64,000 nt of DNA, taken from positions 7,883 to 71,882 of the forward strand of contig JAJZIM010000008.1 of assembly GCA_021810565.1 (NCBI GenBank), written 5' to 3'. Positions 6,427 through 10,394 of this stretch are shown here, piece after piece. The stretch is from Bacillota bacterium. Lineage in GTDB: Bacteria; Bacillota; Sulfobacillia; JAJZIM01. A program made the translations under genes and the position numbers. Within the stretch, counting starts at the first letter, position 1. Each line of letters begins with the position of its first letter. The notes beneath the pieces were generated by a model. The model was not told the origin of the DNA and did no database searches. It saw nothing but the letters and a program-made list of their open reading frames with translations.

Positions 6427-6690
6427 CCCGCAACAAACCGGCCTCCCCCGCTCGGCGTCCGACCCCTCTTCCCGCCGAGCCCGGAAGCCCTGTCCCCTCC
6501 GCCACCGTCCGGCGTGATCCCCACCGAGACAGACGGGGGCGCAACTAACCGGACACGAACCTCCCGGCCGACCCGGGGCTGCGTCCAATCCCGGCCCGGC
6601 TCCCGCCGCGGCCCTTGGGCTAGAATGACAAGGCCTCGCCTTTATGATATGATACAAGGTGGCTGCGAGGATTATGGAAAACTGGGGGGC

Positions 6691-7107
6691 ATGGCCGTGC
6701 CCGCGTGGGTCTTCGAAGCTACCCTGGCCTTGATCGCCGCCCTGTTCCTGACCACCAGCATCCTCCTGGGCATGCTGGTGGGACAATTGCGCCGCAGCGC
6801 CCGCACCGTAGAGTCCCTGGCCCAGGAGGCGGTCAGCCAGATGGCCGCGACCCTGCGCAGCATGGAGACGACCTCGGAGGAGTTGCGGGAGGCGGGCCGA
6901 GACGCCAGGCGGCAGCTGGAGGAGGTGCAGCACATGTTGCGCACCGCCGATGCCGTGCTGGACAACGTCCGCTTCACCACCCGGCTAGTGCAGACCAGGA
7001 TCGGTCCGCCGCTGATCCAGGCGGCCAGCCTGCTTTCCGGCATCGGGCAGGGCCTGTCCTTTTTGGCCAAGAGAGGCGAGAAGAAAGGGGTGCACGAGGA
7101 TGTCTGA
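6691..7107 (+). CDS. DUF948/YtxG-like membrane-anchored coiled-coil protein
   Basis: N-terminal TM followed by heptad-like helical region; overlaps a YtxH-like gene; start at ATG 6691 after a G-run RBS (the track ORF starts further upstream). Confidence 0.7.
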   Translation: MAVPAWVFEATLALIAALFLTTSILLGMLVGQLRRSARTVESLAQEAVSQMAATLRSMETTSEELREAGRDARRQLEEVQHMLRTADAVLDNVRFTTRLVQTRIGPPLIQAASLLSGIGQGLSFLAKRGEKKGVHEDV

Positions 7108-7444
7108 TCGTGGTGGCAGTGGGGTCGGTTTCCTGGCGGGGGTCTTGGTGGGAGGGTTGGCGGGAGCCGCTTTGGGCCTCTTGCTCGCGCCCCAGACCGG
7201 CGCCGAGACCCGCAACCAGCTCGGCGAGCGGGGCAAGGCCCTGGGCCAGCAGGCCCGGGAGCTGGCCGACCGGACGCGGGATGTCTCCACCGACTTGGCC
7301 AACCGTGCCCGCAAGGTACTGAACCAGGAGCGGGAGGCGGCGCGCCAGGTGGTCGCCGCCGGCGCCGAGTCGCGGCGCCAAGAGAAGGAGGTCCTGGAGC
7401 GGGAGTTCAAGGAGACCGTGGATCGCCTGGCTCCGGAGAGTTGA
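7100..7444 (+). CDS. YtxH-domain general stress protein
   Basis: FLAGVLVGGLAGAALGLLLAPQTGAETR signature. Confidence 0.85.
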   Translation: MSDRGGSGVGFLAGVLVGGLAGAALGLLLAPQTGAETRNQLGERGKALGQQARELADRTRDVSTDLANRARKVLNQEREAARQVVAAGAESRRQEKEVLEREFKETVDRLAPES

Positions 7445-7461
7445 AGCGGCGCCCTCGGGAC

Positions 7462-7489
7462 AGCCCCGCCCACGGCGGGGCTTTTGCTT
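7462..7489 (+). terminator. intrinsic terminator
   Basis: AGCCCCGCC-cac-GGCGGGGCT followed by TTTGCTT. Confidence 0.75.
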
Positions 7490-7649
7490 GCCCACCTGTC
7501 GAAGTCAGATCCCTCGTGGGGGGAGCAAAATATGATATTTCGATGCCTAAATACAACATCCCATGCAAATATCACAATGTTTGTCATTCAGGCAGGAATT
7601 ACGCCAAAGTGATGGAACATATACTAAAAGCCCATGAGCGATGGGCACC

Positions 7650-7724
7650 CCGGCGGGTCATCGAGGAGGCTCGACCCGATCTCGCCCCGCCGGCGGCACA
7701 AACTTCGCGAGATCGGGATGGGGG
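7650..7724 (+). promoter_or_regulatory. conserved structured 5' leader (candidate pseudoknot), copy 1
   Basis: CCGGCGGG 7650-7657 pairs with CCCGCCGG 7686-7693; CCCGATCTCG 7675-7684 pairs with CGAGATCGGG 7708-7717; GAGGAGG at 7663-7669; same layout upstream of the paralogue. Confidence 0.55.
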
Positions 7725-8324
7725 ATGATGATGAAGAAGCTTCCCGGATCGTGGTCCCTGCCGGCCCTGGTGGCCGCCGCCGCGCTCCTAGCCGGGTGCG
7801 GCGTTCCGCCGAGCGCCACCACCCCCGCCGCTCCGGCCAAGGCCAGCACCGCTGCGGTGCAGAAGGCCGTCGTGCAGCGGGTGGACACCTACTTCGCCAA
7901 CGAGGCGAAGGCGCCGTTGGGCGGCAGCTACCAGATCAGCACCGCGGCGCTGTACAAGGCCCTGCAGAAGAACCCGAACCAGTTCCTGCTGCTGGACGTG
8001 CGCATGCCCTCCGGCCCGGCGACCGCCCCCGGCTACGCGCAGGGCCATATCGGCGGAGCGGTCAACGTGCCCTACCCCGACTTGGCCAAGAACCTGAACA
8101 AGATCAAGAAGCTGGACCAGGGCCGTCCCATCGTGACCATCTGCTACACCGGCCAGTGGGCCAATCAGTCGGAGGCGATCCTGCGTCTTTTGGGCTACAA
8201 CGCTTACGCCCTCCATCTTTCCATGAGCGACTGGAACCAGAAGACCGACATCCTGCCCCCGAAGCACACGGTGCCCAACTATCCCCTGGTAACGGGGACC
8301 AAGCCGGGCACCTTCAAGCCTTAG
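7725..8324 (+). CDS. rhodanese-like domain lipoprotein, copy 1
   Basis: Lipobox LLAGC; rhodanese motifs LLLDVR, YAQGHIGGAVNVP, active-site ICYTGQ, LRLLGY; start at one of the ATGs 7725/7728/7731. Confidence 0.88.
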   Translation: MMMKKLPGSWSLPALVAAAALLAGCGVPPSATTPAAPAKASTAAVQKAVVQRVDTYFANEAKAPLGGSYQISTAALYKALQKNPNQFLLLDVRMPSGPATAPGYAQGHIGGAVNVPYPDLAKNLNKIKKLDQGRPIVTICYTGQWANQSEAILRLLGYNAYALHLSMSDWNQKTDILPPKHTVPNYPLVTGTKPGTFKP

Positions 8325-8365
8325 TTCACCCATACCTCCTGGGGCCGCCGATGCGGCCCCCTTTT
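8221..8365 (+). repeat. near-identical direct repeat with 9607-9751 (rhodanese 3' end, 3' UTR and terminator)
   Basis: Hand alignment at offset 1386 shows 5 mismatches in 145 nt. Confidence 0.9.
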
Positions 8366-8368
8366 TTT
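8341..8368 (+). terminator. intrinsic terminator
   Basis: GGGGCCGC-cgat-GCGGCCCC, then C and T7. Confidence 0.85.
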
Positions 8369-8653
8369 CGTCCTGAAAGCCGGTCGTACACGGGAAACGA
8401 GCCGGTTCGGCCCCGGCGAGCCCACCCCGGATTGGCGCAACCTTTTGCCTTATTCAATGATTAAATCGGATATTTCAATGCGCCAATGCTTGATTCCCCG
8501 TGCAATTTTGACATGCAATTTTTATTATGTGTCTTTTTTCTGCAGGTTTTTTTGCTTCAGCACAGAATAACTCGGTGGCAGAGTGAGAGGAAGGATGAGG
8601 ATGCTATTCGCGGTTCCCGGCGATTGCCCTGAAAACCACGGGAGGTGCCGGGA

Positions 8654-8925
8654 ATGGCCGATGGCAAAATGGCACCGTTGGAGCTTTTGCGCACCCTGGC
8701 CGAGGACGAGGATACCGACTTCCCGCGCGAAGGGGTGCGGCTGGAGGGTGCGCGAAAAAACCGGCGCCGCACGCCATGAGCGCACCAAAGAGCGGGGCAA
8801 TCCCCGCAACGGCAGGCGGCCCAGGGACTGGGACACCCGGCTGGGCAAGAGCGTCTCGGGGATCCCCAAGATGCCCAGTGACGACCGTTTGCCGAACTTC
8901 CGGGAGCCCCGCCGCATAGTGGAAG
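8654..8925 (+). mobile_element. degenerate IS256-family transposase N-terminal remnant (frameshifted pseudogene)
   Basis: GGAGGT RBS, then MADGKMAPLELLRTLAEDEDTDFPREGVRL; after a frameshift EKTGAARHERTKERGNPRNGRRPRDWDTRLG..IPK...LPNFREPRR, matching the IS256 ER..RNG.R.R...TR.G....IPK pattern; no DDE domain follows. Confidence 0.7.
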
Positions 8926-9028
8926 GAGGTGGATTCGGCAGACACCGCAGCCTGATGGCCATCGCTCACGTCTCGCGAACCACAGACGGCTTTTCCCCCC
9001 TTTGACGAAATGCAACCAAGAACCAAGC

Positions 9029-9110
9029 CTGCCGGCGGTGAATTGAGGAGGAAAGACCCCGATCTCGCCCCGCCGGACAGACCCAAGACAGAGATCGGGA
9101 TGGGGCAAAG
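9029..9110 (+). promoter_or_regulatory. conserved structured 5' leader (candidate pseudoknot), copy 2
   Basis: CTG-CCGGCGG 9029-9038 pairs with CCGCCGG-a-CAG 9070-9080; CCCGATCTC 9058-9066 pairs with GAGATCGGG 9091-9099; GAGGAGG at 9045-9051. Confidence 0.55.
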
Positions 9111-9710
9111 ATGAAGATCAAGAGAACAATGGTTCTCCCTGCGCTATTGGCGGCGGCAGCCCTCTTGGCCAGTTGCGGCCCTCCCCCCGCCGTCGCGCCC
9201 TCCGCCCCCGCCCAGCCCAGCTCGGCAGCGGTGCAGACGGCCATCGCCCAGCGGGTCGAGTCCTACTACAACCACGCCTTCGACAACAAGACCATGGCCA
9301 CCTACCAGATCACCACCAAGCAACTGTACGGTGATCTGAAAGCCGACCCGAGCAAGTACTTTCTGGTGGACGTGCGCAAACCCAAGAACACCGTCAACTT
9401 CGGCATAACCGCTTATGGATACGACGGCAACCACATCCCCGGCGCGGTCAGCATCCCCTACGGCCCCGCGGTGGCCAAGGCCATCGCCGACAACGCGATC
9501 CCCAAGGACAAGACCATCGTCACCATCTGCTATACCGGGCAGTGGGCCAACCAGACGGCGGCGCTCCTGCGCCTATTGGGCTACCACGCCTACGCCCTGC
9601 ACCTGTCCATGAGCGACTGGAACCAGAAGACCGACGTCCTGCCCCCGAAGCACACGGTGCCCAACTATCCCCTGGTTACGGGGACCAAGCCGGGCACCTT
9701 CAAGCCTTAA
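9111..9710 (+). CDS. rhodanese-like domain lipoprotein, copy 2
   Basis: Lipobox LLASC; FLVDVR, GNHIPGAVSIP, ICYTGQWANQ; C-terminus nearly identical to copy 1. Confidence 0.88.
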   Translation: MKIKRTMVLPALLAAAALLASCGPPPAVAPSAPAQPSSAAVQTAIAQRVESYYNHAFDNKTMATYQITTKQLYGDLKADPSKYFLVDVRKPKNTVNFGITAYGYDGNHIPGAVSIPYGPAVAKAIADNAIPKDKTIVTICYTGQWANQTAALLRLLGYHAYALHLSMSDWNQKTDVLPPKHTVPNYPLVTGTKPGTFKP

Positions 9711-9726
9711 TTCGCCCATACCTCCT

Positions 9727-9751
9727 GGGGCCGCCGACGCGGCCCCCTTTT
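9727..9751 (+). terminator. intrinsic terminator (duplicate of 8341-8368)
   Basis: GGGGCCGC-cgac-GCGGCCCC, then CTTTT. Confidence 0.75.
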
Positions 9752-9788
9752 CATGCCGCAGTCCGCGGCAAAAAAACCCGCAGATACC

Positions 9789-10394
9789 CTACCGGCGCCC
9801 AGGCAGGGGCGGCATGGGAGGCCGCTCCCCGGTGCGCCAGCTGCCGGAAGGGGGCAGCTGGCCGAGGTCTACGGAGAAGCTCACGGGCCCGGAGGAGCCG
9901 TAGGCGGGCCCCTCCATCACGGCAAAGCACCGCATGACCCCCCGGGGCACCGGCAGCACGCAGCCGCCTACAGTCCGGATCCTCCCCCGGGGGGGCAGCG
10001 TCACCCTGTTCCCCGCCGGCAGGTACCTGGGAAGCCCTGCCGCAGGAGAAAGGGCGGTCCCCGCGGGCAGGCTCAGCACGAAGCCCGCCGGCACCGTCAT
10101 CCTCGCCCCCGAAGGCACCGGCCTGGGTCCCACCGCGCCGGGTGCATAAGCCAAACCGCCCTGCGCAAAGGTGATGACCACCGGCGCAGGTGAGCCTCCC
10201 CACCAGGCCTCGGGAGCCAGGCTCACCCCCCGGCTCAGGATGAACATCCGAGGCTTGCCGTAGCCCGAAACCGGCCTCGGTGCGGCGGCAGGGGTCTTGG
10301 TCTTCCCCGGAGCGCCCTTGGCCGCCCTACCGCCGCATCCGGTGGCGCCTAGCAGGAGGAAAAATCCGGTCAGGAGCAAGGCCAAGAGTCTCAC
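9789..10394 (-). CDS. hypothetical lipoprotein
   Basis: GGAGGAGG RBS; signal peptide with lipobox (LLLGATGC); Pro/Gly-rich; no family recognised. Confidence 0.6.
   Translation of the reverse strand: MRLLALLLTGFFLLLGATGCGGRAAKGAPGKTKTPAAAPRPVSGYGKPRMFILSRGVSLAPEAWWGGSPAPVVITFAQGGLAYAPGAVGPRPVPSGARMTVPAGFVLSLPAGTALSPAAGLPRYLPAGNRVTLPPRGRIRTVGGCVLPVPRGVMRCFAVMEGPAYGSSGPVSFSVDLGQLPPSGSWRTGERPPMPPLPGRR

Follow-up and report, generated by a model that had tools for sequence, protein, structure and literature searches.

Block-wise conserved leaders of two rhodanese lipoprotein genes in an uncultured Sulfobacillia bacterium: a candidate lineage-restricted structured RNA element

Introduction

Small riboswitches with an H-type pseudoknot fold include guanidine-III (ykkC-III), SAM-II, SAM-V, preQ1-II and fluoride, all of which are Rfam families; guanidine-III is associated with guanidine-handling genes. 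The known riboswitch classes are, to our knowledge, widespread. Here, we analyze two short leader segments that have the same compact topology, each lying directly 5' of the start of a rhodanese-domain lipoprotein gene. Both are located in a 64,000-nucleotide (nt) stretch of contig JAJZIM010000008.1 (hereafter "the window") from an uncultured Bacillota bacterium of class Sulfobacillia, an organism found in mine drainage, tailings and sediment metagenomes. An initial annotation, made from the sequence of the window alone, had described the leaders as a conserved pseudoknot and as a candidate translational switch controlling exported sulfurtransferases.

Several other described arrangements invite comparison. 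In phage T4, the initiation regions of genes 38 and 25 are split, with a hairpin that cuts the distance between the Shine-Dalgarno (SD) sequence and the start codon from 22 to 5 nt and from 27 to 11 nt, respectively, according to a passage in PMC3014915 that summarizes Nivinskas et al. (1999) and Malys and Nivinskas (2009). In Bacillota, the orphan SD known as STAB-SD lies in the 5' untranslated region (UTR), where it binds the 30S subunit and protects the message from exonucleolytic decay at the 5' end, as outlined in an extract of PMC12970973; the STAB-SD of Bacillus thuringiensis cry3A (Agaisse and Lereclus 1996) is cited there, and the hbs leader of B. subtilis is given as a related 5' stabilizer in a portion of PMC5737220. 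Pairing between the 5' UTR and the 3' UTR masks the SD in Staphylococcus aureus icaR (from an excerpt of PMC3868564) and in B. subtilis hbs (again from PMC5737220, in part).

Results

Two leaders share an interleaved series of complementary blocks

Leader 1 (positions 7650–7724 of the window) and leader 2 (9032–9105) carry the same blocks in the same order: A (CCGGCGG), 6 nt, GAGGAGG, 5 or 6 nt (in leader 1 and leader 2, respectively), B (CCCGATCTC), GCC, A' (CCGCCGG), 15 or 14 nt, B' (GAGATCGGG) and ATGGGG (Table 1). In both leaders A and A' are exact reverse complements, as are B and B', and both repeat pairs are entirely Watson-Crick, with no G-U pair. The A-B-A'-B' order gives the topology of a pseudoknot, with loops of 18, 3 and 15 nt in leader 1 and 19, 3 and 14 nt in leader 2 (the third loop being rich in A and C in both), and the distance from the start of B to the end of B' is 43 nt in the former and 42 nt in the latter. 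Each copy extends its helices in its own way: B:B' reaches 11 base pairs (bp) in leader 1 with 100% complementarity, and A:A' can there be lengthened to 8 bp (5' arm to 7657), while in leader 2 A:A' is prolonged across a bulge by CUG/CAG. All of these features—the block order with its two complementary pairs, the pseudoknot topology, the near-constant span, the copy-specific helix extensions and the position adjoining the start region—had been reported in the initial annotation, and all are borne out by the sequence of both leaders.

The blocks are kept while the linkers have diverged

Across the 75-column core of the two leaders, the named blocks are identical at 48 of 48 columns and the linkers at 8 of 27 (i.e., the random level), a comparison that is partly circular because the blocks were chosen as conserved segments. 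When the stems were set from leader 1 alone, 32 of 32 stem columns proved identical in leader 2, against 24 of the 43 other core columns (Fisher p 4.6e-6). Neighboring synonymous sites are saturated, 10 of 15 third positions differing in the aligned signal-peptide codons next to the leaders, and the gene bodies of the two paralogues are ~50–75% identical at the DNA level.

One part of the locus departs from this level of divergence. The last ~140 nt of both genes, together with their terminators (8229–8365 and 9615–9751), are uniformly ~97% identical, and their sequences mark this stretch as a recent gene-conversion tract between old paralogues. That the paralogues are old follows from the gene 2 protein being nearer to the orthologous protein of another genome of the class (G001; 72% identity) than to that of gene 1 (61%). 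Given that the real conversion tract is uniformly ~97% identical, gene conversion cannot explain the block-wise identity of the leaders. The shared leader and the similar signal peptides probably spread between the paralogues at a later point, and were then held by selection.

A metagenome contig from a ~5%-diverged strain, X13, spans 7461–8365 with 45 differences and one gap; it covers leader 1 only, there being no X13 cover over 9010–9760. Among the differences listed (34 of the 45), the 189 nt preceding the leader account for 18 and the leader itself for four (7670 C>T, a T added after 7670, 7673 G>C and 7704 T>C), and all four lie in linkers (chance ~0.014). Runs X1, X5 and X9, from nearly identical strains, show no difference in either leader. 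We conclude from these alignments that the named blocks are under purifying selection, in agreement with the contrast between diverged linkers and preserved paired segments on which the initial annotation had relied.

Interleaved repeats and folding energies are unremarkable in themselves

Pseudoknot topology alone is not beyond chance. Perfect repeats of ≥9 bp interleaved with others of ≥7 bp, counted under similar loop limits, occur as 76 distinct pairs in this genome (68% G+C), and most of them fall within genes. Folding energy does not set the leaders apart either. Their nested minimum-energy structures, obtained with ViennaRNA (which cannot score pseudoknots), are ordinary for their composition: z is +0.57 for leader 1, where 143 of 200 shuffles are at least as stable, and −1.24 for leader 2 (24 of 200). 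The nested optima amount to −35.7 and −29.0 kcal/mol, respectively; by itself, hairpin B gives −14.5/−15.8 kcal/mol and the duplex of helix A another −14.0, values to which a pseudoknot penalty would still have to be added. An intrinsic terminator or attenuator was considered and rejected, as no U-run follows B'.

The element is confined to one genome

The genome of origin (G000) holds exactly two copies of the element: an exact 18-mer has two matches, the two leaders, and allowing up to 3 mismatches yields 33 matches against 24 for a reversed control, which is noise. A count of just two copies also disposes of the idea that the leaders are the end of a mobile element or members of a repeat family. 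A covariance model (R1), built from the two sequences with B:B' only, recovered both leaders from the same genome (113 and 102.8 bits) plus one match of 20.9 bits. Among the 150 genomes searched with R1 (including G000), weak matches were obtained in 21 others, at expectation values (E) of 0.033–0.9 per genome. Of the weak alignments, the four with the highest scores (three from other genomes, and the 20.9-bit match) keep neither the helix nor the blocks.

The proteins, too, belong to a rare subfamily, with nine members at E ≤ 1e-20 in a collection of 5.8 billion proteins. Related proteins in public data include P0003 (68% identity, on a contig of 9.4 kb), P0004 (63%) and P0006 (61%), as well as P0008 and P0009, whose identity to gene 2 is 54% and 50% but whose sequence motifs resemble those of gene 1. 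Across 401 genomes of the phylum, a protein search at E ≤ 1e-25 matched only G000 and none of the 400 others; orthologues are present in three of 209 other genomes of the class (G001, G092 and G077). The genomes compared include none of the same family as the source organism. A protein-guided search of metagenome contigs added 12 loci, all of 30–38% identity and too distant to inform.

Three homologous leaders could be read. The G001 orthologue (73% identity, same order) has AAAGGAG 7 nt before its ATG, behind TTGACA-N18-TTAAAT. That of G092 (67%) has GGGAGG 8 nt before its ATG, behind TTGACC-N17-TATTAT; its protein is identical to an NCBI protein named from Candidatus Hydrogenisulfobacillus filiaventi, and G092 belongs to the same class. 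A third paralogue in the genome of origin (51%) carries GGAAGGAGG before a GTG. Canonical SDs thus lie 7–8 nt from the start in all three.

The local start sites are weak and a strong SD lies upstream

The 3' tail of the 16S rRNA carries CCUCC (it ends ...GGATCACCTCCTT, also given as ...CACCUCCUU). In a census resting on a rough gene model made for this analysis, GGAGG was found near the candidate start of 1475 of 2435 coding-like frames, and only 288 had no SD core. The two rhodanese genes are among these few: neither GGAG, GAGG nor AGGA occurs in the last 15 nt ahead of the start, where a G-run (GGGGG or GGGG) is the sole purine-rich element. Their GAGGAGG lies ~50 nt upstream of the start, and in both leaders no ATG, GTG or TTG occurs 3–13 nt downstream of it.

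Between the end of GAGGAGG and the ATG of the ATGGGG block (at 7718 and 9100) the linear distance is 48 nt. With B:B' looped out, it becomes 5 nt in leader 1 and 6 nt in leader 2; the corresponding looped-out spacing in the X13 variant is 6 nt. ATG 7718 does not share the reading frame of gene 1; its own frame (that of the open reading frame 7634..8464) has no stop for 248 codons. The frame of ATG 9100 has four codons, stopping on an ATGA overlap with the gene 2 ATG at 9111. Two kinds of upstream reading frame were rejected: one initiated from GAGGAGG, since no canonical start lies within 13 nt and a hypothetical ATC start gives a different frame in each copy, and an N-terminal extension of the protein, since gene 2 has an in-frame TGA at 9039–9041. 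A gene for RNase J is present in the genome (TIGR00649, 661 bits against a cut-off of 400, at G000:C78).

Comparison with described systems

A search of 7400–9300 on both strands with Rfam 15 (4227 models, permissive filters) found no family at its gathering threshold, so that the lack of a match to a known class, as first noted by eye, extends to the whole collection. Three matches were obtained at E ≤ 10 (best E 0.48): mir-484 (20.4 bits against a threshold of 40), isrJ (19 against 37) and RsmY (15.4 against 57), none of them on the leaders' strand over the motif. The models of guanidine-III (ykkC-III) and of the other small pseudoknot riboswitches gave no match at E ≤ 10, and the genes downstream encode rhodanese lipoproteins; the likeness to guanidine-III suggested by the initial annotation was one of topology. 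With the small H-type pseudoknot riboswitches the leaders share a compact pseudoknot topology by the ribosome-binding site and an A-rich third loop. They differ in that their loops are not conserved and in their exported-rhodanese context, and they have neither the phylogenetic breadth nor the covariation by which riboswitches are recognized. A literature search linking rhodanese, riboswitch and pseudoknot found nothing relevant.

The T4 gene 38 and gene 25 sites, as far as they are described in the summary cited above, are closer in geometry. There, as here, a strong SD is too distant linearly and can be brought near by a stable intervening structure: the long spacing is shortened to ~5–11 nt in T4, and would fall from 48 to 5/6 nt in the leaders with B:B' formed. 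The arrangement is also confined to a narrow lineage in both cases, with ordinary sites in more distant relatives. Unlike in T4, the codon at the ideal distance is not the gene start (ATG 7718 being out of frame and ATG 9100 heading a four-codon frame); moreover, 42–43 nt are looped out with a second, interleaved helix inside, and the genes are cellular rather than phage genes.

The resemblance to STAB-SD, so far as the extract of PMC12970973 sets it out, consists of a perfect, 16S-complementary SD in what would be a Bacillota 5' UTR, the absence of a start codon at initiation distance and the presence of RNase J in the host. In contrast, a STAB-SD needs no flanking interleaved helices, and its distance from the start is ~125 nt in cry3A as against ~50 nt here. 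A STAB-SD role would explain the conservation of GAGGAGG, but not that of the two helices.

In a possible parallel to icaR and hbs, as these are portrayed in the excerpts cited, both rhodanese genes have ACCUCCU in the 3' UTR before the terminator, a complement to the AGGAGG in the leader. We treat it as a candidate lead; unlike the described cases it comprises 6 bp only, and it amounts to a single evolutionary instance because the 3' ends have been homogenized by gene conversion. The same ACCTCCT reproduces exactly the anti-SD sequence found in the 16S tail, which may point to pairing between the 5' and 3' UTRs or to SD mimicry. The G001 and G092 homologues and the third paralogue have neither a terminator nor ACCTCCT.

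The locus and its surroundings

The two rhodanese genes are co-directional, and each ends at an intrinsic terminator (8341–8360 and 9727–9746). From the sequence, the duplicated units seem to be built alike, each with a promoter/operator region followed by the leader, the gene and the terminator (Table 1). With the likely promoter upstream of them, the shared blocks would fall in the 5' UTR; the paralogous AT-rich, promoter-like region upstream of both units likewise makes it likely that the leaders lie within the transcript. Positions 7533–7587 of this region are unchanged in the ~5%-diverged X13 strain, where the flanks are heavily changed. Its inverted repeat, TGATATTTCGATG ... CATGCAAATATCA (7533–7574, with a paralogous copy at 8467–8524), is a candidate operator or promoter for some regulator. 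A candidate −10 box, TATACT (7620–7625), was rejected as a conserved promoter element, being changed at two positions in X13, and a sigma-54-like TGGGCACC before leader 1 was set aside as not common to leader 2. The arrangement AAAAG-N11-TGGGCACC is found in register in the G001 leader (L010 ~2225–2200, minus strand) and at 7626–7649 of the window, where it may be a trace of common leader ancestry upstream of segment A; at that place, G001 has an SD (GGGAGG) with in-frame GTG/TTG codons.

The insertion sequence (IS) remnant at 8583–9005 stands between the AT-rich region and leader 2, and gene 2 may thereby have lost its original promoter. Short X13 contigs match parts of the transposase remnant at 80–90% identity, as expected of a multi-copy element. 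At 8365, the X13 contig (record 9) passes from gene 1 into sequence like the downstream flank of gene 2, reflecting either a single-gene strain formed by deletion between the identical 3' tracts or an assembler's collapse of the repeat.

Upstream of the first unit are a gene for a YtxH-like protein (PF12732, E 4.1e-15; 7100–7444) and, overlapping and preceding it, a membrane-protein gene with no family match (6514–7107); the YtxH-like gene is set apart from the rhodanese genes by its own terminator (7462–7482). The surroundings of the homologues differ. In the case of the third paralogue (G000:C67, L025) and the G001 orthologue (G001:C234, L010), the next gene encodes a large, polytopic membrane protein whose end carries a haem-binding CxxCH motif, and in G092 (G092:C1, L052) only the apparent start of a membrane protein follows the stop codon. 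A DsrE-like gene and an ArsR-type regulator lie upstream of the third paralogue. This neighborhood looks like a sulfur-oxidation or persulfide-handling module, a context that the two genes of the window have lost.

Table 1. Positions of the leader segments, genes and associated features in the window
Feature	Position	Strand	Remarks
Leader 1, segment A (CCGGCGG)	7650..7656	+	5' arm of proposed helix A:A', extendable to 7657; identical in leader 2
Leader 1, orphan SD-like GAGGAGG	7663..7669	+	16S 3' tail carries CCUCC
Leader 1, segment B (CCCGATCTC)	7675..7683	+	5' arm of proposed helix B:B'; 7675..7685 with 2-nt copy-specific extension
Leader 1, segment A' (CCGCCGG)	7687..7693	+	3' arm of proposed helix A:A'
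Leader 1, segment B' (GAGATCGGG)	7709..7717	+	3' arm of proposed helix B:B'; 7707..7717 with extension
Leader 1, ATGGGGG	7718..7724	+	G-run is the only SD-like element near the start
Leader 2, segment A	9032..9038	+	
Leader 2, orphan GAGGAGG	9045..9051	+	
Leader 2, segment B	9058..9066	+	
Leader 2, segment A'	9070..9076	+	
Leader 2, segment B'	9091..9099	+	
Leader 2, ATGGGG (9100–9105)	9100..9114	+	heads four-codon upstream frame ATG GGG CAA AGA TGA
Gene 1, rhodanese-domain lipoprotein (MMMKKL...LLAGC)	7725..8324	+	PF00581, E 2.6e-16; possible starts 7725, 7728, 7731
Gene 2, rhodanese-domain lipoprotein (MKIKRTMVLPALLAAAALLASC)	9111..9710	+	PF00581, E 7.9e-14; ATG at 9111
AT-rich promoter/operator-like region upstream of leader 1	7528..7600	+	inverted repeat TGATATTTCGATG / CATGCAAATATCA at 7533–7545 / 7562–7574
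Paralogous copy of AT-rich promoter/operator-like region	8463..8550	+	IS remnant between this copy and leader 2
Degenerate IS256/Mutator-family transposase remnant	8583..9005	+	weak, below cut-off: PF00872 E 8.5e-4; NF033543 E 0.0014
ACCTCCT in gene 1 3' UTR	8334..8340	+	just before terminator; complementary to leader AGGAGG; candidate partner
ACCTCCT in gene 2 3' UTR	9720..9726	+	before terminator; inside the gene-conversion tract, so not an independent copy

Discussion

The work above describes a leader segment shared by two old paralogues, in which interleaved complementary blocks have been kept and the sequence between them has drifted. We read this segment as a lineage-restricted, selectively kept, cis-acting structured RNA element of the 5' UTR that acts on translation initiation and/or mRNA stability, and hold this reading to be about evenly balanced between right and wrong. 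How it might act is a more tentative matter, and the specific mechanism outlined below, in which an SD is juxtaposed to the start region and stabilizes the message, is possible but doubtful. What the sequences show directly is how the leaders are built, how their conservation is patterned, that the motif is missing elsewhere and that the local SD is weak; helix formation, and every functional effect of the leader, we infer from these.

The local start sites, each with only a G-run, lack the canonical GGAGG at 5–10 nt that is used by most genes of the organism. In the proposed mechanism, the GAGGAGG ~50 nt upstream would act as a landing site for the 30S subunit. Helix B:B' (9–11 bp) would loop out the intervening 43/42 nt, with A:A' either buttressing it as a simultaneous H-type pseudoknot or acting as a competing hairpin, such that the bound 30S subunit would end 5–6 nt from the ATGGGG/start region. 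This placement would increase or gate initiation from the weak local site, as at a standby or split ribosome site. As with a STAB-SD, the bound subunit might also shield the 5' region from RNase J. Measured against this, the translational switch of the initial annotation survives in part: the motif is real, bears the marks of selection and lies next to the start, but there is no sign of a ligand, and the loops have diverged. Its other option, in which folding carries a remote SD up to the start, offers the best geometric fit, with the reservation that the positioned ATG is not the gene start.

A number of observations weigh against a structured RNA element, or against the mechanism proposed for it. 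Those concerning distribution are that R1 found nothing credible in the 149 other genomes of the class, its matches there being at noise level; that the exact two-gap pattern, sought in one genome per species for ~185,000 species, had four matches in unrelated taxa, none with A, GAGGAGG or ATGGGG; and that the motif is absent from the leaders of the G001 and G092 orthologues and of the third paralogue (3/3 readable), a lack of conservation among homologous leaders that the initial annotation had itself named as counting against its reading. As for structure, all 16 of 16 proposed pairs are invariant in both copies, so that the covariation it had likewise called for is zero, and base-pairing is unproven by comparison. 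The bare pseudoknot energy is no better than that of the nested folds, and the two leaders differ in preference, the nested optimum using B:B' in leader 1 and A:A', with GAGGAGG imperfectly paired to B, in leader 2. A block change may also be among the 11 X13 differences outside those listed.

The geometry and the transcript raise further difficulties. The ATG ideally positioned by B:B' is the start of neither gene, and gene 1 would suffer from an efficient split site at ATG 7718. Measured to the true starts, the spacing with B:B' looped out is 12–18 nt (leader 1) and 17 nt (leader 2); these distances are too long, and they are unequal. The geometry of SD, hairpin and start is not enriched genome-wide, with 86 sites for GGAGG against 97 and 148 for the controls GGTGG and GGCGG. 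A simple promoter scan of 7400–9800 returned 0 sites, and the IS remnant splits leader 2 from its promoter-like region; that the shared segment is transcribed is something we infer.

Part of this evidence could equally be claimed for leaders with no dedicated function, i.e., a leftover of the duplication or of patchy gene conversion in which the interleaved repeats are a G+C-rich coincidence. Gene conversion is active at this very locus, as the 3' ends show; there are 76 interleaved repeats of such size in the genome; the motif is missing from every other homologue read; and the nested folding energy is unremarkable. Identity in the leaders is nevertheless block-wise, at 48/48 versus 8/27, and three random-level linkers between perfect blocks are unlike the trace of one or two conversion tracts. 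In addition, every stem set from one copy recurs intact in the other, at the p value given above, and the ~5%-diverged third sequence changed only in linkers among the differences listed. We therefore regard an absence of function as unlikely. Selection might instead act at the DNA level, with transcription controlled by proteins that bind the inverted repeats as operators or to loop the DNA. This would suit two pairs of perfect Watson-Crick palindromic partners, the GATC in both B and B', and the signs of DNA-level regulation at homologues, namely the ArsR-type gene beside the third paralogue and palindromes at the G092 promoter. It would, on the other hand, require two different proteins with unusual spacing, the half-sites being 33–37 bp apart and interleaved; a separate AT-rich, operator-like inverted repeat already lies upstream, kept in both units and in X13; and no regulator gene is nearby. 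The conserved GAGGAGG and ATGGGG by the start codon are non-palindromic and thus strand-asymmetric, translation-type signals, which, together with the spacing and interleaving of the half-sites, favors a function in RNA over one in DNA and makes the DNA element distinctly unlikely.

The remaining proposal, the leading idea of the initial annotation, is that the leaders are a new small pseudoknot riboswitch or protein-binding switch, which senses a sulfur-related metabolite or binds a regulator and controls translation of the sulfurtransferases; we see this as a long shot. The two conserved helices are arranged as in a pseudoknot, their loops (18/19, 3 and 15/14 nt) are sterically feasible and loop 3 is A/C-rich in both copies, all of which such a switch would show, and there are alternative folds of similar energy, B pairing imperfectly with GAGGAGG in the leader 2 optimum. 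Having no Rfam match, it would be new if real. Yet the loops and junction flanks, where an aptamer has its invariant bases, are precisely the diverged parts (8/27 identical); there are two copies in a single genome, with none in 149 relatives or in the orthologous leaders; covariation is zero; and no expression platform clearly occludes the local start site. It is correspondingly improbable that the leaders are the first of a new class of regulatory pseudoknot RNA with a very narrow distribution. Cued by a sulfur signal or by a protein, such an RNA would alternate between two folds, one masking the SD (GAGGAGG paired to B, enclosed by A:A') and one presenting it as a pseudoknot (A:A' together with B:B'). 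If that were true, such a switch would gate the production of exported sulfurtransferases in an uncultured Bacillota lineage of acid mines.

Returning to the reading of the segment as a cis-acting 5'-UTR element, the leader is no demonstrated riboswitch; it is a candidate RNA control element, as yet unproven. What is new is a lineage-specific structured leader with an upstream SD, outside any Rfam family, comparable systems being already known. Its value is limited by restriction to one lineage, by a structure that is not provable by comparison and by an uncultured host. Should the helices form and the orphan SD work as proposed, the leaders would represent a cellular, non-phage ribosome site assembled by RNA folding and combined with a pseudoknot, set before genes for periplasm-facing sulfur chemistry in poorly known bacteria of mine waste.

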